Source: Neodothiora populina
Lineage: Eukaryota
Length of the DNA stretch: 64,000 nt
Direction of reading: 5' to 3'
NCBI RefSeq assembly: GCF_041146345.1
Contig: NW_027191419.1
Location: 620,001-684,000, forward strand
Positions 3,001-19,459 of this stretch are shown piece after piece. Under the pieces are notes generated by a model. It did no database searches. It had not been told where the DNA came from and saw only the letters and a program-made list of their open reading frames with translations. A program made the translations under genes and the position numbers. Every line of letters begins with the position of its first letter. The stretch's first letter is position 1.

Positions 3001-4360
3001 GGCCCAGACACTCCGTCTGCATGAAGGGACGAGTGTGGATTGGGAGTGTCTCTCGCATACATGCTTAGCAAAGCTTGGTGCATTCGTGAAGAGCGTCATT
3101 GTGTCCATACGCCTTATCTCTTTTTAAAGTCTGCTGCAGCAGCTAGACAGAACCTTCCTCTCCCAAAGCAAGGGGGTACCATTTCCTCGTGTGCAAGAAA
3201 GAGAGACAGTAAACCCGCCAAACGCAAAGCAAAGCAAGGTACAGTCGTAGAGTAAGAAGCAGCATAAACACAAATCTATCGCAGTTGTCTCATGCAAGTC
3301 TGCGCTTTCGGAACAGCTGTATTCTTCTACCGGTAGACTTCACATACAACACTCACTACATGCAAAAGGTCAGACCCAGCACTAAACTCTCCGTGGAAGG
3401 TCGTGTAAGCTTGTCATGTACGCCAGGTACTTGAGCGACAATCCTTACCTATAGGCAGTCTACTAACCGCAAACCGCCAACCGCACACCTCACAACCTCC
3501 TCGACGGCACCAAAGACCCTGTCCCTAGCATTCGAGTACAGGAAGCACGAGAAGTATACGCTATGCAACACGTCTCTGACGGCGTGGTGGAGAGGGGAAG
3601 TGTCCACTGAGTTACTCTACCTATTTTATCTTGGCTATTAATACTATCACTACTAGGATACAACAGTGTATTCTGCTGCCCTTGCCTCGAACGGTAAGGT
3701 ATTATTTGGCAAGGTAACGGCTACCATAGGTGGGCGTTTGTCTATCCAGCCTCGTCGTTGTCGTGCACTCGTGGTCAGGGTGGACGCATGAGTTCATCTA
3801 ATGTACTTACTATGTGAACGAGATAGGAATCATATACTCCATGCTCTCACGGACGAACATTGCCCGTCTTTGAGGATCTCTGCTCTGCATGTGGCTACTA
3901 TAGCTGATTGTGCATTTTTGCTCTCCGCTGCGCCATACTGCCTTGGTCTTTCCTTCTTCGGCTCACAATCGCTGTGAAGAACACGGTTTCACTAAATGGC
4001 ATACACGGCTAGGTGTGAGGAGTTGTCTCACTTCTGTCCAGCTGGAGGACTTGTAACATGATGAACATGGTCTACCTTCAGTTTGTCTGTCCTCAGCTTT
4101 GGAGGGGAAAAAAGGATTGGGAATGTTAGGTTTGTTTGTGTTTCCGTTTCTATCATTTCTACCAAGCTGCAAAATGAAGAAAGACAGATGATGGGGGGAT
4201 TGTGTGTGTGAAAGATGTAGAAGAAGAAGAGGAGGAAGAGGAAGAGGCGGAACAAGAAGAAATAGAAATGAGGAGTATAAGGTTGTACGCGAGACATGGT
4301 ATGGGTTGTTGTAGTGACGAAGGTAGTAGTACTAGAAAGAACAAATGGAGAAGTAAAGAA

Positions 4361-7300
4361 TCATTGCCGTGGCGACTGAGGTCGCCCCCAGAAATCGAGA
4401 CTGGCAATGACATCTTCTCCCATCTCGTCCTCGTAAGCGTACAGGATCTGTGCGATGACACATCAGCAAATCGTTCTCTCACATGATCATTGCTGACAAA
4501 TAACAAACTCACCTCTCTCGAACTGGAGTGCAAGAAGCGCACGTTCTTGGCTGTGAGAATACAGACCAAGCCACCAGTTTCCGTAAGTCTGATTTCGATG
4601 AACTCTTGTTCGAATGCCAATATGTACTTGTCGCCCCATGTGGCAAAGGCGGTCGGCGCGCCCTCCCAGTTGATGCGCCAGTCGTTCCTCGCTCGCCAAC
4701 CGTTCTTGTTGACGAAGAACGAAAAGTCGGTGTAGCAGAGCAAGAATTCGGAGGGTGTGCGCTCGATGTAGATTGGTTTGACGTTCTCGCGACGCACGAC
4801 AAAGTCGAGCGAGGTGTCTGCCTGGTCGAGCAATGACTGCGTCTCGAGTGTCTCGAGTGACACAATCTCGAAACCTTTGGCACCTCCCACACAGAGCTTG
4901 GAACGCAAGAAATGTATGCTGTTGGACTCCATAGGGATGTAAAACTCCTGTTTTTCCGTGAGTGGGCTTGCCGTGCGGATCGTAGAGTCGGGTCTTCTCA
5001 CCTTGTACGGTCTCAAGACCTCTTGTCCACCGGCAAGCATCTTCGCCAAGCCCGACTTCTTCTTACCCTTGGTCATGGAATCCATAGGCTCATACACCTT
5101 GACAGTACTGGAAAGAGAAGACGACTTGACGCAGCACACCAGCAACTGTCCATTGCACATTCCAGCATTGAAGTAATTGGCATGACAAATCTTTCGTCCG
5201 CGCTTCGAGGGCGCAGCCTGGCTTTCCTCAGGGTCCAGAGCGTCGAGTGGGTATGAGTACATGACCTTGTCAGCCAGCACCAGCAATATCTGGTGTTGCT
5301 CAAGCACGTCGATCTGAGTAACCATCTTGCAGTCGAGCATGCGCTTGGGCTTGTGTGACGCATCGCGAGGCTTGCGATCTGCGACGTAGACTCCGAAGTC
5401 TGTACCGAGGACGAGTTTTCTTGCGCCATCTAAACAATCAATTAGCATAAATTGACGTGTTGGTATTGCTTGTAAGGGACTCACCAATCGGCACGCAGCA
5501 GTTGACTCTGACTGCAGACGTGAAGAAACCTTCACTAATGTTGGTCTTCGTGAAGATGTTGCTGCGCTCTCGGAGTTTCTCTTGCTGAGAGTGGATGTGC
5601 TCCATCCACTTCTCTCGTTGAATAGGGGATGTACAGTATAGCGTCAATTCATAGCCGCCCTTGCCAAGTCGCTTGAATGTCAACGGGTATCCGTCCTCCT
5701 TTTTGGTGTTGGCAGTGGTAATGTTTCTCGTACCGGGTATCATGCTTGACGAAGGGCGTTTCGTTATGCCCAGTCTGGGCAGAACTTCATCCATCTGGGT
5801 GATTACAAGCAACTCTAAAGGTATCGGTTTTCGGTATACTCTCTGCTCCTCACGTTTGTTCACGGTTTTTGTCCTGACCAGTAAGACTGCGTGATCGAAC
5901 AGATATGCTTGCACATCTGGTACTTCAGCCGTCGGTGCCTTTTTCAATGTACTCTTGAAGACCAGTTGGCGGTTCTCTTCTGTGAGCTTCAGGTCCACAA
6001 ACTGAATGGTACCCCACTTGAGTGACTGGTTGAGCTGCATAAGTTGCTGAATATTCTCAGCTTTTCCAGATTCTTCGTTGACCCTGGTCAGGATCTCTTT
6101 GATGACGGCGATGGCCTTGGGAATGTCCTGCTTATCGGGGTTGCCCTCTGCAGTGGGCTTGACAACATTCTCCAACAGCAAGGGATATCTTGCGAGACGA
6201 GTCGTTGGCTTGGTTAGATAACCGTTCAATTCGAGCTTCCTGGACTCTTTGAGTCTCTCCGTCTCTTCGACAAACTTAGCGAAGGCGGGGTTGGTAGACT
6301 TCTCCTTTTCGAACTCGAATTTACCAAAAAGTTGGTTGGCACCATATTTGATGAACGGGGAGAATTGGCCGACGTATTCTAGGAAGACATCTCCGATATT
6401 CCTCACGATGGGGTTCTGCTGCTGTCTCCGCGTAAGGGCGCTTGCCAAACGGACGTTCACAGAATGGACTTCCTGACAGTTGGAAAATACGGTCCTGATG
6501 AATTTCTCGCGGCGATGCTCCGGAATTGGTGAGATGTTCGGGTTTCGTAGCGGTTTGATCCAGAAGTCCCGCAAGTACTCGAGATCTTTGACGAAATCGC
6601 GTTCGGTATACATAAGCTCGGCAATGACCTCCTGTCTCTTCTTCTCCTTCTCGTCGACGCTCTTGGCGATTTCTTCGGAGACAGTGTTGATCCATAGTCT
6701 CTGCTCGTTCTCCGGCTCGTCTTTTAAGCTTGATTGTGAGCTCTCTCTCTTCAGGCCAGGTCCCAGCTTCAGATTGAGGCGCTGTTGTTGCTCGAGACGT
6801 CGCGGACATGCGATCGAGTAACAGAGGTGATCTCTGGTGCAAGTGGGCGAGTAACACTCGGTAAGTAATGTGAAGACGCCGTTGACTTCGGGAGGCTCGT
6901 CGACCAGAGCTTCCTTGAATTGGTACATCTCGGTGGGCGAATCTCGGAGGCGATGGGCGTAAGCAACCTCGTGAAAGAACTTTTGAGCATCCAAGGAACG
7001 GCCTAACAGCAGCGCCAAATTTCGATCAGAGGTTCGAATAATGTAGGCAATCAGCTCGACGGCGTCGTGACCCGTGAACGCATTCTTGTAGACCAGACTG
7101 TCTTTCTCCCTGTCACTCAAGGCGATGCGCTCGCGGAAGGCTTGCGCGACCTTAGAGAGCAGAGCACCATAGACTAGAGACGGACGTTTCTGGGCGACCA
7201 TGGTGCTACCGGTCATCTGGCTATTCGATCTCGTACTTGACGGTGCTATCGATGGCGAGGGTCGTGGCGACTGAGCTTGGTGTTCGTGGAAATCGGGAGA

Positions 7301-8287
7301 GGCCATCGCGGTCGATGCCATGGACATGGTGCGTGATTGAACGCTGCTCTGACTGGGGGTCCGCGTTTTCGCATCGTGGTATGGATGAGGTGGCTGTTGT
7401 GCCTGAGGGTGAGCGGCGCCCGGTCGGGCATCCGACTGCAGCCCATCGCCCCCGGAGTCTGTTCTCTTCCTGTTCGGTATGATTCTTCCGCTCATTGTCT
7501 GCATGTGATCGTTGTCTCGCGCGTAGGATGACATGGACATTGTTCTTTCGTCGGATGGTCTGTCAGGCACCACGCGGCCTTGAGCAGTTGTTCGCGCCAG
7601 ATGGTTCATGTAAGACGGCTGGCGAAAAGCATTTGCAGGAGCCATGCCGTAGCTAGCAGCGGCGGGAGAGAAGGATGGGCGGGAAGTCGCCGCCATGGAC
7701 TGCGATCTAAAGCTGTCAGAGTTCAATGCAGGAGGGGCGCCAGGAGAAGTACCGGGTCCCTGGGTGTAAGCGCGGTGGTATTGCTGAGCGGGGGTGGGAG
7801 CGCGTGGATCCAGCCTTTGGGGCGCACCATATGGTCGACGGTCGGGTCTCAAAGGTTGTGGAAGAAACTGTGGCTGAGGTTGGCGCTGAGGTTGAGGATG
7901 CGATGACTGGGGACCTCTGGGAGGATAATCTCCGTTGACAGCAGGGCCCATGTTGGATCTCGGCGAGGGATATCCATTGGCAGGTTGTCGCAGAGGAGGA
8001 GCCCTCTGCATGTACTCGGCTGTCTGGCCCGACATGGTCGCCGCTCTCTCGGTCAAGTGTGGTGGGGCCTGTGAAGTCATGGTCTGAGACCTGCCAGCAG
8101 TGGATGGAGGTGCGCCGAAAATGGAGTTGTAGGCGGCATCACGCTGGTACGATGAGGCAGTATCAGGTCCACGAGGGCGAGCATGGGCGTTGGGTTGAGC
8201 TTGAGCTTGAGCTTGAGGGTAAGCATGGTTGGAACTAGGAGGTGCTCGCCCGTAGCCGTTGCCCTGAGGTGCATTGTACTGCGCCAT
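4361..8287 (-). CDS. rom2: Rho1 guanine nucleotide exchange factor (DEP-DH-PH-CNH)
   Basis: P/Q-rich N-terminus, DEP (FTGHDAVELIAYII...LGRSLDAQKFFHEV), DH (KRQEVIAELMYTERDFVKDL...KPTTRLARYPLLL), PH and CNH domains. Exons 8287-5485, 5429-5002, 4947-4513, 4447-4361; all introns GTGAG..AG; ends IASLDFWGRPQSPRQ*. Confidence 0.96.
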
Positions 8288-8445
8288 GTAATAGTTGCAG
8301 TCGACGCTACTTTATCTGGAGCCCGCTATGGGGAGGACATCCGACAGGCTCGCTAAAGCCTTAGCACCTTGTAGCCAGAGTCGCGAGCTGGCTAGGACAA
8401 GCGATCGAATACCAAAGACCGGATGTGTAAGAAAAGCTCGGTTGG

Positions 8446-10862: not shown

Positions 10863-11527
10863 CTAAAAATCCTGTATTCCAGTCTCACCTGTACGGCTGA
10901 TTTCCTCACCTACAAATTCGGCCGCCTCTTGGTCGAAATAGTCATCTTGCCTTCGCCTAGTTTCCTCCTCCCAATCATCATACTCGTCGTTGCCGTCGAC
11001 CTGGCCGTAATCGAAGTCATGATCCTGCCCTCTCAGGAACCTCTGCTCCATGGCGTATCGCCACTTATCCAAGCCTTGCTGGCGGTCTTTCGGCCGGTCT
11101 TCTTCATCTTGCTCTACAGCGATAATGGACCCAGCTGCGTCGCGCTTGTACACTAAAGGACTGTTTGGGTCCGGGTTTTGCAGGGCGGCAACTTTTGCTT
11201 CTGATCGCATGATATCTGCTTCCATTATGCCCGACCAACCTTGCTTCTTGCCGTATGCCTCTCTCTCCGCCGTGGTTTGAAATCGTCTGACCATACGGTC
11301 ATATAGTAGTGGGTCTTTGGCAAATGTTACTGTCAGTCCTACAAAGCAGATCATGGCTGGTGAGAATGACCTGCAAGCTCTAGAGTTGCCGAGTCGAAAT
11401 ACTCGGCATGCTTCTCGAGATATTTCCGTCGCCTTGTCTTGACTTGTAGACGCGCCGTACGCGCCTCTTCACTCTCATGTCTGCTGTCTGAAGACACCGA
11501 AACAGTGTCTTTGGGGAAATGAGGCAT
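10863..11527 (-). CDS. CCDC97-like (DUF2052) conserved protein
   Basis: Exons 11527-11371 and 11314-10863. Motifs RRRKYLEKHAEYF...LELA/DPLLYDRMVRRFQT and FLRGQDHDFDYGQVDGNDEYDD...QDDYFD...GETGIQDF* fit this family. Confidence 0.8.
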
Positions 11528-12010
11528 CCTCGCAGAAAGCCCACACAGACATGAACACGGCTGGTACTGCGACAGCCCGAGTGGAAGTAATCGTTCTATC
11601 TCAGTGATTAATTATCAAGATTCTAGGTACACATGCGGCAAGGTGGGCCGTATCGATGTGTCTCGTGGATATTCTTGGCAAAGCTCCGAATACGGCCAAG
11701 ACCGAGGCTTGCACATCATCGATTGCGTGGGGTGGGATGGCCAAAACAGCCTGAACCCTTGAACTCTAAATCCCACAAGGCTACAGCGAACCTCTAGGCT
11801 TCCACTTTCGATGTTCGAATAACTGCATTTGGCCCCCAATTCTTTGCATTTCACCCAGAGCCGAGAAATATATCGTTCTTATCTAATTATGCGAACAACT
11901 ATTGTCGCAAGTGCAACTCTAGATCTGTTGAAATCGTGAAGACGACATGAGATCTAGCTGAAACCACGTTTACTCCACAACAAGCAGGTGTGGAAGCGAC
12001 ACTACGAATC

Positions 12011-15000
12011 ATGCAGTCGATATCACACTTCGCAGGGGATCTGACCTTGCTCTACACGGAAACAAAGAAAAAAGCTCTCAATAGTACAGGCAAACATGAA
12101 ACGATACCGGCATTATCACATCTTGACCGTAGACTCAGAATTCAGAAAGACCGCCTGGTCACTTGGGGTCTCGAATGGACGGACCAAGAAAAGGGCTCCG
12201 GTGGCGACATCGATGCATCTGTCGCTGAAGCTGGTATGACAGAGACGGTCACCAGCGTTCTGGGCAATATCCAAGAAGTTCTCGAGCAGGCCGAAAACAT
12301 CAAGTCATCGGTCTCTGCTTGGTCGACTCCCGAAAAGTCGACACTGTCTGCGAGTGACGAGACAAAGTATGGCGAGCTTCTGAAAGACCTCAGCTCCTCA
12401 ATCGATATACTCTACGAAATTTCAACCACAAGACGGGCAATCGCCGCCGGGTCTCATCCGACTTTCTCGAGCGACAGGTACGAAGATGAATATGCTCCCG
12501 GAACAATAGTCTCCGGAACCACGCACAGAAAGCAACCCCTCCGATCACCAAGCTTCGCAGCTTCCGAATTGACCCTCGTCAATCCAGCGTTCGCAAGACC
12601 AAATCTGTCTCCTTATGCGGGACTGCCAGCGAGTCTAAACCCTCAAGCTCTGGAACTGCCTGCGGAGGCGCCACCTCCCTACGATACCTTTGGTGTACCC
12701 TCAGCGACTCGCATGATCGGCCGTCTGATCAAGCCATTGGCTCCAGAGAGTGTGCAAGCGGCTCTTCCAAGCTCTTCTCATGAAGCATATGTTCTGGTAG
12801 AGTATGCCAATTATGACTCTCTTTATCACGCGACTGGCGTACCACCCCCTTTGCAACGACTCGAAGGCCTTGCCGCTGCTCTAGCTGCAATACAAGCGAA
12901 GCAACAGCAATCTCTGATTCTACTTGGCTACTTCGAAGACCCCAGCCAGCCTCGTATTGGCTTGGTGTATGACTTTCTCGGCGCAATACACGATCGCTCC
13001 CGCGTGGATCAGTTAGTTCCGGTCAGCCTGCTGAATCTGGTTCAGACAGCCAACAAGGGAGGCAAACCAGCCGACGTTGCTAATGCTACCCCCTTCCTGG
13101 AAGATCGATTCAAGGTTGCACTCCGTGTCGCAGAGAATCTGAGAGACTTGCACGTAGAAGGCTATTCTCATGGTAATCTCAATAGCGGTAGTGTGGTCTT
13201 CTTCCGACAAGGTCAAAGCTCGCAGCTCCGGAGGGGGGAGCTGCATCGGCCGACGCTCTCTGCCTTTGACATGTTTTCCCGAACAAGAGTCGAACGCACT
13301 AACGACGCTCCTACCATGAACATCACCCGACATCCACTTGACCACAACGGTGATCAGAGCTACATAAAGGCCGTACAATTTGATTTGTACGGACTGGCGC
13401 TATTGCTTCTCGAGATCGGATTGTGGGTGCCTTTACATGACTTGTACAAAGCCAAGTATACTCTCAAAGACTTCAAGCTGCGGATTGAGAAAATCTGGGT
13501 TCCGAGGCTGGCGGCTAAATGCGGCTCGCTTTACATGCGCGCTGTGCAGACGTGTCTCCGCCTTTCAGATGATCCAGAAATCGACAAGATCAACCCGGAT
13601 GTCATATATGAGAACATCATAAGGCGTCTCAAGCGATGTTGTTACCTCGATGAAGATGAGATGATCATGCCGGAGACGGACATGGTGACTCCGCAAGATC
13701 AGGTGGCACTCTGGCACAATCTGACCTCGAATCGACCATTGCAGGGTCAGATGCAGAAACACGTACCGAAGACGTCGAACACGTTGAGTACCCCAGCCAT
13801 GTCCTCCGCCTTCTCGACCAGATCAACTTCGACAATCAGAGATGAGCCTGACGTGGCGGATAGAACCGCATCTGCGACACGGGGTATCACAAGTAGAGGT
13901 TCGACAGTCGAGAAGCCACCTGTACCATTCCGTGAATATCGACAGAAGGTCGTTTTTGTACAACGTCGATGGAGGGAATGCTGCAGACATATCAGGGAGA
14001 GAAGGAACAGGCCTGCTGCGTCTGACCGTTCTACTGATATTCTGCACGGTGGTCCTCACTTAGAGCGACGGTTCAGCGCGACAGAAGCTCGCCGCAGCTC
14101 CGAATCTCTAAGAAGATGCCAAGTGTTCCCCATCAAGCTGCCTCAGCCAGCCCTGGATGATTGGCATACCAACCTGGGTATGCGTTTATCCCGTATCGTT
14201 GAGCGAGCCTTGAAGGATTCGTCCGAGTCTTCAAGTATCGATCTCGTCGGCCTCGGACATGATCTGTGTTCAGCGAAGCCTACTATATTGGTCACTTGCG
14301 CGAGCACAGCCAGAGTCAAAGCAGCATTAAAACGCAAGTTTGACTACGACAGATCCATGTTCGACTTGAAGGTCCGTAAGGGACGCATCGCTCTTGCGAG
14401 GGGAAGCAGAGCACGAGACAAGTTGGCGAGTCGAACGAACAGCATAGGCGGAGACAACGATGATGGTGAAAGGTATTTGTTCTGAGTTCTTTTAGCGTTT
14501 TTGCTTTGGTCTGCTCTATACCCAACCATGTTTTCTTTATGCCCCGCGGGGTGTTTCTTCTTTTATATTTCAAACGGAACCATATGCCGAGAGAATGCAA
14601 GAAATGACACATTTGCCTTGTGCACACGTCCGCGCGAAGACTTCACAGGCGCTTCCCCTGCTTTATCCCGCCGCAACAATACCTGAACAATTAGATCTGC
14701 CCGAGCCGGCGGCTGACTCGCCTGTCCATAGTGATGACGCTGCACCGTTGAATCCCTATTTCCAGCAGCGACCTTTGTGCGGCGCTTCGATTGGGGCATA
14801 TCTGCCTAGTTATGGTCACCTGGACCCTGTGTCGTACGGAGGGGTTGTAATGGTGGAGCGTGGGGGACAAGTGAAACCTTATGGAATGAGTGTACATCAC
14901 ATGCTTGACCCTCCAGAAGGCGACGACGGTGACAACTCCGCCATGTCTTCGTCCACCAACACCAACACCGACTTGGACGAGAGTAGTTCTATCAGTAGCA

Positions 15001-16133
15001 CGCTGGAGTCTTCCGAAGAAGACAGCGATGAAGATGGCGGATACGTATCCTCTGACTTCGAAAGCGACATCTCGGACGATGAGACTGGCGTCGCCGCCGG
15101 CCATGGCAGAGCCTCACATCGAGCTGAAGCTGGCGATAAAGCAGGCGTGACCATTGACATGTCTCCAGCGATTCAAGTCACGCAGCCTGCATTTCGCGAT
15201 GCGTGGGATATGCAATTGCATGCCGACGATGCCCCGCTCGAGGAGTTGGACGAAGACCACCTCGCGTCATACAGATTGGGATCTGTCTTTGCTTCCTCCG
15301 GGCTAAGACGTGTCACTAGAGGAGGCATGCGTCACGAAATCGACTGGGCACTCATCGAACTTGACCCACCTCGATTGCAAAACTACAACTTGGTTCAAGG
15401 AGGACGTCGATATTACAGTGACGCCAGCTCAGGCACAGACGCATGCAACAAAGTCACTGTTCAACCGGACCTAAAGACTCCTGTTTGTCGACAAGAAGGA
15501 GTATATGGACCCAAGGACGATCTCTATCCCATGAACATTGTAGCTTCGCAAGAGCTGGCCGGTCTAGACGTGCAATGCTTTGGGCGGACAAGCGGACTTG
15601 CGCGCGGCACGATCAATGCATACATGAGTTTCGTCAAGATCCGCGGTCGTCGCACATTTAGCGCATGCTGGAGTGTCATGGGAGGATTCGGGGTAGGTGG
15701 GGATTCGGGTGCGTGGGTGCTGGACAACCGGACGGCAGGACTGTGCGGTCACGTGCTCGCGGAGAGTAATGGCATGGCATACCTCTGCTCGATGCAGGTG
15801 CTCTTCGAGGATATGAAGGCAACGCTGGGAGCGAGTGCGATCTACCTTCCTGGCGGAGAAAGCAATGCGGTAGTCACCAAGGGCGCAGTCATCGTTCACG
15901 GGGATACTCGAAGCACCGCGACACAATCCGGACCTACCACTGCACTCGAAGCGGACATCGCAGGATCTATCGCTGGATTGGAGATCACGAGGGATGGTGC
16001 AGGAGCAAAGAGTCAGTCACTGTCAGCGAGGCGGAGCAGATATACCGGGGTCAACGGCAAAGCAATTAAGGGCAAGTCGAGTCATTGTGTCAGACTGGGT
16101 CAGGGGCGGCAAGAGACTGCCGTGAGGACATGA
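12011..16133 (+). CDS. HeLo (HET-s/LopB) domain + kinase-like pseudokinase + trypsin-like serine protease fusion, about 1287 aa
   Basis: Exons 12011-14472 and 14732-16133 (donor GTATTT, branch GCTGAC, acceptor CATAG; 3864 nt, frame kept: ...DDGES/DDAAPLNPYFQQRPLCGASIG). HeLo-type motifs RLRIQKDRLVTWG and DETKYGELLKDLSSSIDILYEI; kinase-fold motifs LGYFEDP..RIGLVY, HGNLNSGSV, FDLYGLALLLLEIGLW; protease motifs GMSVHH, IDWALIEL, GRTSG, GGDSGAWV. The true start may lie in an unidentified upstream exon. Confidence 0.8.
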
Positions 16134-18081: not shown

Positions 18082-19459
18082 ATGGTGGAAGACAAATACA
18101 TCGGGTTGGCGCTGGCCGTCACCTCGACCCTCGCCATTGGCACGAGTTTCGTCATAACCAAAAAGGGCCTGATGCAGGCCAGCGAACAACATGGCTTCGA
18201 GGGCGACGGCTACTCATATCTCAAGAGTCCGGTGTGGTGGGGAGGAATAGTCACCATGGTCATTGGCGAAATCGCAAACTTCGCCGCATATGCCTTTGCG
18301 CCAGCGATTCTCGTGACGCCTCTGGGAGCGTTGAGTGTCCTCATCGGGTGAGTGTTTTGGTCCCTGCAGTCGTGTTTCTCTGATCTGGCTGACCATTATT
18401 CTGCAGAGCTGTACTCGGCGCATACTTTCTCGACGAGCGGTTGGGAACCCTCGGCAAACTGGGATGCGCAATGTGTCTGATCGGAGCCGTGGTCATTGTC
18501 CTACACGCCCCTCCGGACAAAGATGTGCAGACCATCGACGAGATCCTCAACTACGCCATTCAGCCCGCCTTTTTGTTCTATTGTCTGCTGGTCATCGTCT
18601 TCGCTGTCGTCATGATATACAGGGTCGCTCCGCGCTATGGACGCAAGAACCCTTTGATCTATCTGTCAATCTGCAGCACTGTCGGTTCCGTGTCCATCAT
18701 GGCCGTCAAGGGTGTTGGTGTCGCCACGAAGCTCACCTTTGCTGGAAACAACCAATTCACTCACCCGAGTACTTATGTCTTTATTCTCGTCACTGTTGTC
18801 TGCATCCTGACGCAGATGAACTACTTCAACAAGGCGCTCAGCCAGTTCAATACCAACATGTGCGCATCATGACAATTCTGCTGTCTTGCGATCCCAGCTG
18901 ACGTCTTTTTCGCAGTGTAAATCCTCTTTACTATGTCACCTTCACCACCTGCACCCTCGTCGCATCCTTTATTCTCTTCAAGGGCTTCAACACCACCGAC
19001 GCGGTCAACACCATTTCCCTGCTCTGCGGCTTTCTCACCATCTTCACCGGCGTTTATCTGCTCAATTTGTCTCGCGAAGATCCGGACGGCCAGAGTCATA
19101 TGGGTGGGGGAGTAGACAGAGACTACGATGTGGATGGCATTCCTACCGACGGTGTAGCCGCATCATTGACCAGACGATCTATTCAAGCGCGACGAAGCAG
19201 CGATCTACATCGAAGGTCCACTAGCGGCAGCTTTGCATACGTCGGTCGACGGAGCGGCGACAACTCACGCGAGGGATTGATGCACAACTACGACCTCGAG
19301 TCGGCGAACGGCGACCGCTTCGGACTCGGCGAGCTTTCAGAAGAACCGGACGAGAGCGACGGCGATCACAGGAGGAGTTTCGGAGACGGACAACTCAACG
19401 GGGGTGGTGCCAATGGCAAGATCAAGGTCGAGCGCGTGAGGCCTACCAAGTTCCGGTGA
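18082..19459 (+). CDS. NIPA2: NIPA-family magnesium transporter (DUF803)
   Basis: [13 protein letters not shown]...[25 protein letters not shown]...LHAP...QMNYFNKAL...[11 protein letters not shown]. Exons 18082-18347, 18407-18859, 18916-19459. Confidence 0.93.

Follow-up and report, generated by a model that had tools for sequence, protein, structure and literature searches.

A probable orthologue of SltB in Neodothiora populina that combines a HeLo-type domain, a pseudokinase and a chymotrypsin-fold protease

The window studied here, a 64,000-nucleotide stretch of Neodothiora populina DNA (assembly GCF_041146345.1, contig NW_027191419.1, forward-strand positions 620,001 to 684,000), carries on its plus strand, from start to stop codon at 12011..16133, a gene for an SltB-type protein of 1287 amino acids. 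From the correspondence of sequence landmarks we identify this gene, with a probability of about 0.85, as the orthologue of SltB (AN6132) of Aspergillus nidulans, the signalling endoprotease of the Slt pathway, which is specific to Pezizomycotina and serves cation and alkaline-pH stress. SltB is a protein of 1272 residues with a pseudokinase and a chymotrypsin-like protease that is described as restricted to the Pezizomycotina (PMC4985261, PMC4557415). The gene is read from exon 1 (12011..14472, +), which encodes amino acids 1-820 plus two bases of codon 821, and exon 2 (14732..16133, +), which supplies the last base of codon 821, amino acids 822-1287 and the stop codon. A deposited N. populina 'hypothetical protein' of 1287 residues (P0003), found by database search, is 100% identical to the product, including all of exon 1, whose translation agrees with it as far as ...GGDNDDGE. 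A preliminary description of the locus, made from the letters and their open reading frames (ORFs), had seen a HeLo-type domain, a degenerate kinase, a folded middle module and a trypsin-fold protease, and this domain reading is borne out by structure models, fold searches and conservation. Its statement that no mechanism was known did not hold: the gene family and its core mechanism are already published, autoproteolysis followed by cleavage of the transcription factor SltA having been described for SltB (PMC4985261).

The link to SltB was made through an Aspergillus congener. In the A. crustosus homologue P0493 (1266 residues), all ten published SltB landmarks (10/10) are found at a constant offset of +7, with M685, K686, K696, K700 and W715 corresponding to SltB M692, K693, K703, K707 and W722, and H1026, D1029, F1119, S1135 and G1149 to SltB H1033, D1036, F1126, S1142 and G1156. 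P0003 is collinear with P0493 in both halves (E 1e-79 and 7e-45) and retains W718, H1022-x-x-D1025, F1130 (Ser-16), S1146 and G1160 (Ser+14), so that the HEID Asp, the F(-16)-GDSGAW-G(+14) pattern and the basic and Trp landmarks before the middle module (MID) correspond to those of SltB via the A. crustosus protein. Size and architecture are those of the SltB group: the two proteins fall in the same length class (1272 versus 1287 residues) and share the order of pseudokinase and then chymotrypsin-like protease. The named homologues are all Pezizomycotina, with Dothideo-, Eurotio-, Sordario- and Lecanoromycete-type names (the last a lichen-associated fungus), the distribution also published for SltB in a survey (PMC4557415), and on a rough rather than rigorous count there is essentially one protein per species among the named matches. 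The two genes differ in the placement of the intron, the single intron of A. nidulans lying at about nucleotides 3413-3480 (PMC4557415) and that of N. populina at nucleotides 2463-2721 of the gene. They also differ in sequence, identity to the Aspergillus homologue being 28-36%.

The C-terminal half contains the protease. An AlphaFold2 (AF2) model of exon 2, built with 59 homologues, shows a two-barrel chymotrypsin-fold serine protease in exon-2 residues 8-380 (14754..15872, +), as assigned by structural comparison with VIA and by Foldseek. The highest VIA scores came from alpha-lytic protease (Z 17.0, root-mean-square deviation (rmsd) 2.5, 183/198 aligned) and the streptogrisins, but at 15-18% identity. 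These bacterial proteases are secreted, have only about 190 residues and lack a large acidic insertion. The protease domain of rice NAL1 (residues 190-452) followed with Z 16.0, rmsd 3.2 and 208 residues aligned, and was the top Foldseek match (E 1.4e-6). Like SltB, NAL1 is an intracellular chymotrypsin-fold enzyme that acts on transcription regulators; however, no sequence relationship is detectable (there is no Pfam Nal1_C match), and NAL1 has neither a HeLo domain nor a pseudokinase. The ESM Atlas gave Peptidase_S64, Nal1_C and Trypsin_2 as leads for the protease, at shares of 10-35%, and a single-sequence PDB search with the C-terminal half gave two matches at the level of chance, to a subunit of respiratory complex I (E 0.56-0.57).

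The active site is strongly conserved among 409 full-length family members aligned to a hidden Markov model (HMM) of the protease. The His-His pair H876/H877 (14895..14900, +), which contains the proposed catalytic His, is His in 407/407 members, D1025 in the HEIDWAL motif (15342..15344, +; equivalent to SltB D1036) is Asp in 409/409, and S1146 in GDSGAW (15705..15707, +; equivalent to SltB S1142) is Ser in 369/371. These positions, together with that of the kinase-loop motif HGNLNSGS (13169-13192), had been given correctly in the preliminary description, which had also put forward triad conservation as a check; the triad is preserved throughout the family at the counts just given, well beyond chance. 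The clan PA fold, the His-Asp-Ser order and the GDSG nucleophile motif are all present, and in the complex model described below one bound peptide is in contact with the His, Asp and Ser regions alike. Between the catalytic His and Asp lies an acidic, Ser-rich and poorly conserved insertion (14910..15137, +) that is predicted to be disordered, with a predicted local distance difference test (pLDDT) below 50 over most of exon-2 residues 63-125. The domain is followed by a disordered C-terminal tail of low conservation (15873..16130, +; pLDDT below 50 over exon-2 residues 381-466).

The model further indicates that the catalytic His is probably H877 (or H876) of the invariant VHH motif. Strand 46-54 of the first barrel leads straight into this motif, a placement that corresponds to that of His57 in chymotrypsin-fold enzymes, and residues 56-57 of the motif (exon-2 numbering) contact the cleft-bound peptide in the complex model. 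The chymotrypsin strands FCGGSLI...WVVTAAHC are mirrored by CGASIG...YGMSVHHM. For SltB, His925 and His939 were the candidates in 2015 (PMC4557415), and His1008 or His1033 was proposed in 2016 (PMC4985261), the model of the 2016 authors spanning residues 900-1192 without VHH. At the position of H1033, 314/409 members have His and 87/409 have Gln, and such frequent replacement by Gln is in keeping with the partial effect of H1033A. At the position of H1008, the residue is conserved in 406/408, but it is off the canonical position and outside the contacts of the complex model. While the candidates in print have remained uncertain, fold and conservation here favour VHH.

For the N-terminal half, an AF2 model of exon 1 (820 residues) was built with 62 homologues; it has a mean pLDDT of 73 and disordered linkers between its parts. 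The first part is a HeLo-like helical bundle at amino acids 10-145 (12038..12445, +), with predicted helices at residues 10-24, 33-57, 67-73, 77-102 and 114-145. Pfam HeLo (PF14479) covers amino acids 37-109 with 20.0 bits (E 6.5e-4), under the gathering cut-off of 23.2 bits. Among the family members scanned, the match falls on the same N-terminal stretch in nearly every one, over profile positions 8-202 across the family, and it exceeds the cut-off in 3/7 (P0003 itself included), 20/38 and 0/12 (Eurotiales/Onygenales-type) members of the respective sets. Many Sordariomycete homologues carry a precomputed HeLo label and names like 'HET-s/LopB domain protein', as the preliminary description had thought possible. 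On these profile matches we regard the HeLo assignment as sound at the family level. Structural searches added little to it: the family profile found no HET-S, MLKL four-helix-bundle or protease chain among PDB sequences, its matches there being weak ones to kinases (best E 0.023), a single-sequence PDB search gave no match for the N-terminal half, and the Foldseek and VIA searches with the 820-residue model were filled by kinases and barely probed the HeLo and MID folds. The HeLo signal is shared with HET-S and HELLP; however, the SltB-type protein has no C-terminal prion or amyloid motif, no NLR partner and no hydrophobic N-terminal helix, and its gene is a conserved orthologue rather than a polymorphic incompatibility gene. 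The N-terminus, MQSISHFAGDLTLLYTETKKKALNS, is charged and follows a conserved family pattern, L-T-x-L-Y-x-x-x-K-K-x-A. The hydrophobic, Gly-rich helix of the toxic HeLo type, whose apparent lack had been noted before, is indeed not present, the N-terminal helix (MQSISHFAGDLTLLYTETKKK) being charged.

The HeLo-like bundle is followed by a two-lobed kinase fold at about amino acids 200-546 (12608..13648, +), identified from the AF2 model and from fold searches and overlapping Pfam DUF7580 (28.1 bits against a cut-off of 27). Its pLDDT is 82-97 over most of amino acids 231-540 and lower near 351-360 and 421-450. Foldseek returned JAK1, IRAK4 and HER3 at E values of about 1e-7, and VIA gave Z scores from 19.1 (rmsd 4.1, 266 residues aligned) down to 15.7. 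The catalytic loop reads HGNLNSGS at amino acids 387-394 (13169..13192, +), with Asn in place of the HRD Asp and Ser in place of the downstream Asn; it aligned to the kinase HRD loop in the family-profile PDB search, and H387 is invariant while G388 and N389 are at least 90% conserved. Strand beta3 reads VLVEY, with Glu for the Lys, and none of the printed variants of 105 aligned members has Lys there (Glu or Asp instead); the DFG position reads AFD here and (S/A)FD in family variants. Judged by these motifs, the TKL-like kinase fold is catalytically dead. A protease-domain representative search gave 414 clusters at E<=0.001, and the figures for representatives given here and below are from the best 150 of these. 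Among 74 long representatives, 15 keep the catalytic-loop Asp as HRD, HKD or HQD (e.g. HRDVNSNN, HKDVNSSN); the loop kept in other lineages shows that the domain descends from a TKL-type kinase, and by the same motifs the degree of kinase deadness differs between lineages.

The order of a HeLo or four-helix-bundle type of domain (here with predicted helices) and then a TKL-like pseudokinase with a degenerate loop is shared with MLKL of animals and plants, and the family loop consensus HGNINSSS may be compared with HRNISSSS in mouse MLKL. However, the match to the rat MLKL pseudokinase by VIA (Z 16.2, rmsd 4.5, 243 residues aligned) comes 35th among the rows shown, behind CRAF, JAK and IRAK, and is no better than that to many other kinases. 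Mouse MLKL was the second-best PDB sequence match of the family profile, but a weak one (E 0.089). Furthermore, MLKL lacks a protease and its switch is phosphorylation by RIPK3, and no membrane role is known for SltB.

Two short elements of the N-terminal half may bear on regulation. The PPPY motif at amino acids 221-224 (12671..12682, +) is a candidate binding site for WW domains or an Rsp5-type ligase; P221, P222 and Y224 are invariant in the family alignment (A1). Among full-length members of four search sets, PPxY occurs in 96/96 (Dothideomycete-type), 110/114 (Eurotiomycete-type), 58/73 and 0/120 (Sordariomycete-type). In P0109 (amino acids 612-638), P0120 (610-637) and P0121 (604-631), the linker from pseudokinase to MID harbours an inserted WW domain (E 2e-10 to 2e-11), and ubiquitination of SltB at K257, K690 and K693 is cited in the 2016 SltB paper (PMC4985261). 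Recruitment of an Rsp5-type ligase by PPPY would be in keeping with both, and this reading of the motif gains support from the WW insertions in some homologues and from the published ubiquitination. The same linker holds WD40 repeats (E 1.5e-28) in the metagenome-derived homologue P0264 (amino acids 575-747). The second element is a conserved basic helix at amino acids 640-665 (13928..14005, +), which is a helix in the AF2 model and is IQ-like in Q651, W654 and R655; R655 is invariant, Q651 and W654 are at least 90% conserved, and sub-threshold Pfam IQ matches occur in 2/38 homologues. From its sequence this helix may be a calmodulin-binding site. The idea is of interest as the slt phenotypes of A. 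nidulans are calcium-remediable.

Between the basic helix and the protease lies MID, the 'intervening folded-looking module' (SIDLVGLG...KPTILVTC) that had been noticed in the letters and that the AF2 model resolves at amino acids 700-794 (14108..14392, +) as a beta-alpha-beta-beta-alpha-beta block with pLDDT 88-96. It is preceded by a disordered linker at about amino acids 685-705 (14063..14125, +; pLDDT below 50 over amino acids 673-699), to which the SltB landmarks M692-W722 map via P0493. In each of the 71 representatives with four domains (among the best 150 of 414), the MID HMM matched right before the protease, and an ESM Atlas search with MID returned only unnamed Ascomycota clusters. 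The prediction of a MID-protease complex scored 0.87, compared with 0.40 for the best of three controls; this mark is reached by 51/78 solved complexes and 2/108 mismatched pairs (among eukaryotes, by 39/65 solved and 2/126 unrelated). The runs share at least 61% of contacts, with partner pLDDT of at least 75. In the model, strand 740-745 pairs with protease strand 299-303, and the linker GRIALARGSRA at amino acids 791-801 (14381..14413, +) is predicted to lie in the substrate-binding cleft, contacting protease residues 54, 56-57, 204, 320-326 and 341-350 (exon-2 numbering). Residues 793-796 of this linker lie against protease residues 342-344, 17-19 after the catalytic Ser, which is where chymotrypsin-fold enzymes bind the substrate backbone. 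V788, K790, I793 and R797 are conserved around it. The model supports, but does not show, that MID is a protease-associated, prodomain-like module and that the following segment serves either as a pseudosubstrate or as a second site of processing. Proteases of the alpha-lytic type need an N-terminal pro region whose tail lies in the active site, in line with the title of PDB entry 1boq, and this arrangement resembles the predicted docking of MID and linker. In NAL1, the protease is immediately preceded by a small alpha/beta domain that binds ATP, and the two are in contact (PMC12012508). Finally, the docking agrees with the published C-terminal product of SltB, which starts near residue 692 and thus contains MID and protease.

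The mechanism we propose for the N. populina protein is carried over largely from SltB. Dual-tagged SltB gives two fragments, one N-terminal with the pseudokinase and one C-terminal with the protease, and S1142A abolishes both self-cleavage and the cleavage of SltA from 78 to 32 kDa (PMC4985261). The test suggested in the preliminary description, a dual tag combined with a Ser-to-Ala mutant, is therefore already in print for SltB, and its guess of cleavage in cis matches the published autoproteolysis, for which trans tests in diploids indicate an intramolecular event (PMC4985261). A fragment of residues 692-1272 co-migrates with the natural product yet is inactive (PMC4985261). The sltB nulls are sensitive to cations and alkaline pH, and loss of sltA and loss of sltB produce the same phenotype, with no additive effect (PMC4985261). 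By extension, the N. populina protein would be made as a zymogen and be cleaved intramolecularly by its own protease in the disordered stretch ahead of MID, giving a HeLo-pseudokinase half and a MID-protease half. The halves would stay functionally dependent on each other and be jointly needed for SltA cleavage, and the complex would process SltA, a C2H2 transcription factor, into the short form that is active, switching on genes for cation and alkalinity tolerance. We add the suggestion that the HeLo-pseudokinase half serves as a regulatory or scaffolding prodomain; the Psk prodomain of SltB, of more than 600 residues, was called enigmatic by its discoverers. A functional parallel is Ssy5 of the Saccharomyces cerevisiae SPS amino-acid sensor, a signalling protease of the cytosol that likewise has the chymotrypsin fold and a large prodomain at its N-terminus, and shares autoprocessing, a prodomain that remains functionally attached and the endoproteolytic activation of latent transcription factors (PMC3145550, PMC4985261). 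However, sequence similarity to Ssy5 is marginal: Peptidase_S64 (cut-off 23.6 bits) is absent here, with sub-threshold scores of 11.6-14.3 bits in 3/38 and 1/12 homologues. Nor do descriptions of the Ssy5 prodomain present it as a HeLo-pseudokinase.

Several points weigh against this picture. The orthology rests on an Aspergillus congener and on residue numbers quoted in papers, and at 28-36% identity to P0493 both substrate and regulation could differ. The splice junction 14472|14732 is inferred from comparison of protein and DNA, not from RNA. The region upstream of the gene (11469-12010) has one AGGCA site of the SltA/ACE1 type, at 11522, against 1.3 expected, and one or more such sites occur in 76% of windows of that size; at this chance level, SltA-dependent autoregulation of the A. 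nidulans type is not visible upstream of the gene. In the complex model, the segment in the cleft (amino acids 791-801) differs from the mapped cleavage, which is near SltB 692 and would correspond to about amino acids 690-700 here. This mismatch may reflect a second site, an autoinhibitory element, a wrong model or incomplete mapping by gel mobility. Furthermore, the complex score is the own confidence of an alignment-free model and may echo solved prodomain-protease complexes.

The low identity is also the first point for a variant in which the protein belongs to the same family but has diverged in this lineage into a self-processing protease with other substrates than SltA, or additional ones. 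The uneven occurrence of PPxY, present in the Dothideo- and Eurotiomycete-type sets and in 0/120 of the Sordariomycete-type set, would suit such divergence, as would the HGN loop here against the Asp kept in 15/74 representatives (best 150 of 414) and the WW or WD40 insertions in some members, and the authors of the SltB work themselves write that extra SltB functions cannot be dismissed (PMC4985261). However, conservation is strong in the protease core, in MID and at the active site, named matches amount to roughly one protein per species, and sltA and sltB always co-occur in the Pezizomycotina genomes surveyed (PMC4557415). We therefore consider a changed function improbable and retain SltA cleavage as the expected role.

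The preliminary description had framed the gene as a candidate module for regulated cell death or signalling. The cell-death reading makes the protein an MLKL-like executioner in which proteolysis in cis frees the HeLo-pseudokinase and the HeLo domain attacks membranes, a role that would be compatible with SltA cleavage. The recurrent HeLo signal (above cut-off in 3/7, 20/38 and 0/12) and the order of HeLo and then pseudokinase, which is that of MLKL, speak for it, and a 2025 review places some fungal HeLo-like domains in kinase or pseudokinase proteins (PMC12881547). The published autoproteolysis does detach the N-terminal half, and an N-terminal GFP (green fluorescent protein) tag inactivates SltB (PMC4985261). 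However, the GFP-tagged forms of SltB are all cytoplasmic and without membrane association, although the N-terminally tagged form is the non-functional one, and processing in A. nidulans is constitutive and the cells survive (PMC4985261). The identical and non-additive phenotypes of the sltA and sltB nulls (PMC4985261) are a further point against it. In the N. populina protein, the N-terminal helix is charged, unlike the hydrophobic helix of toxic HeLo domains, and the PDB matches of the family profile include neither HET-S nor the MLKL four-helix bundle. Furthermore, there is no NLR, amyloid-motif or gasdermin partner in the neighbourhood, and the conservation of the gene as an orthologue from class to class of the Pezizomycotina is unlike the patchy occurrence of immune-type genes. 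Taken with the cytoplasmic fusions, these features leave the cell-death framing unlikely.

A related idea comes from the endomembrane system. In animals, repair of MLKL damage by ESCRT-III is an established theme. In A. nidulans, near-lethal ESCRT nulls are rescued by loss of sltA or sltB (PMC3244986), and sltB57, an allele in the conserved stretch between the pseudokinase and protease domains according to the 2015 paper (PMC4557415), suppresses vps nulls while leaving proteolysis and cation tolerance unaffected. Such a separation-of-function allele fits a second function for the N-terminal half. By analogy, SltB could be a fungal counterpart of MLKL with a built-in protease, in which constitutive autoproteolysis frees a HeLo-pseudokinase that acts on membranes or endomembranes, and the loss of this activity, beside that of SltA-dependent transcription, would explain the rescue of ESCRT nulls; we think this doubtful. 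If it were true, loss of sltA would rescue ESCRT nulls too, as SltA drives sltB expression, and the rescue would parallel the countering of MLKL damage by ESCRT-III in animals.

All of the above treats the locus as one gene, although its two halves lie in different frames. The start Met at 12011 is within an ORF at 11951-14485 (+), and the protease is encoded by a second ORF in another frame at 14496-16133 (+). The intron between the exons (14473..14731, +; 259 nucleotides) has a GTATTT donor, a CTGAC branch site at 14713-14717, an AG acceptor and an in-frame stop at 14483-14485; splicing at 14472|14732 joins both ORFs, and a length of 259 nucleotides gives the one-base frame shift that is required. 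The junction was deduced by comparing P0003 with the DNA and with homologues that read straight through. One sequencing run, probably of DNA, gave a single 172-nucleotide contig at 15047-15218 and nothing at the intron. A frame-keeping intron at 14473-14593 was rejected because it would add 46 residues without counterpart in P0003 or the homologues. For a fungus, 259 nucleotides is long, and an ATG at 14595 is in frame with exon 2; hypothetically, a retained intron would yield an 824-residue HeLo-pseudokinase-MID product, and the internal start a protease-only product.

We scanned metagenome contigs with the protease alignment, which gave 79 related loci, and ran HMMs for the four regions on stop-to-stop ORFs. 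HeLo, pseudokinase, MID and protease lie in a single uninterrupted ORF at 45/79 loci, while 14/79 have the four regions in collinear adjacent ORFs on the same strand, which is the window's own pattern, and 20/79 are cut by contig ends. The five closest relatives with split ORFs (51-52% identity) break at the same position between MID and protease, and none of the 59 complete loci has the four domains reordered or on different strands. Among representatives, 71/145 (from the best 150 of 414) have all four regions in the order HeLo-pseudokinase-MID-protease, and the remainder are short pieces or merged-looking gene calls. Representatives of odd architecture (P0145, P0158, P0172, P0201, P0206, P0222 and others) were examined as alternative fusions and rejected, their Pfam domains being unrelated or lacking, so that they look like merged or partial calls. 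Reading frames across the family indicate that the fusion is one real gene encoding one polypeptide. Two independent adjacent genes, HeLo-pseudokinase-MID and protease, wrongly joined by annotation, would account for the change of frame, the 259 nucleotides with a stop, the weak GTATTT donor, the lack of RNA support at the junction and the ATG at 14595 as the start of a protease-only ORF, but this is very improbable, and in effect excluded, because 45/79 loci carry one uninterrupted four-domain ORF, with 0/59 complete loci reordering domains or swapping strands, homologues continuous in the residues flanking the junction, no conservation of the 46 residues upstream of the acceptor and a canonical branch site 15 nucleotides before it. 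The preliminary description, which had allowed for two genes, did not mention the intron.

The gene lies in a partly conserved neighbourhood. A gene for a Rho1 guanine nucleotide exchange factor of the Rom1/Rom2 type lies upstream at 4159-8311 (-), with DEP, RhoGEF, PH and CNH domains (Pfam E 6e-16 to 5e-68), and is syntenic in 4-6 of the closest related loci. Next to the SltB-type gene, and divergent to it, is an ORF at 10863-11468 (-) with a CCDC97-like C-terminal domain (E 3.7e-21), which is kept beside the gene in six related loci (L002-L005, L014 and L019). Downstream, two adjacent ORFs at 18335-19456 (+) are, from their sequence, probably one intron-containing gene, the second ORF matching the C-terminal end of the NIPA magnesium-transporter family (E 9.8e-14).

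We found no paper linking SltB to HeLo or MLKL, or a HeLo domain to a trypsin-like protease. The terms 'HeLo', 'HET-s' and 'prion' do not occur in the accessible text of the two SltB papers (PMC4985261, PMC4557415), which also mentions no MID, VHH histidines or PY motif; their supplementary alignments may show some of these. As a finding, the gene is ordinary: an unnamed 'hypothetical protein' can now be named as an SltB-type signalling protease of a known stress pathway. What is of value beyond this is the HeLo link, the reassignment of the catalytic His and the predictions for MID and PPxY, none of which we found in print. The HeLo link means that the Psk prodomain of SltB would start with a HeLo-type domain, combining the domain logic of MLKL with a protease, and the predicted docking of MID, together with PPxY, may offer starting points for studying how the protease is restrained.

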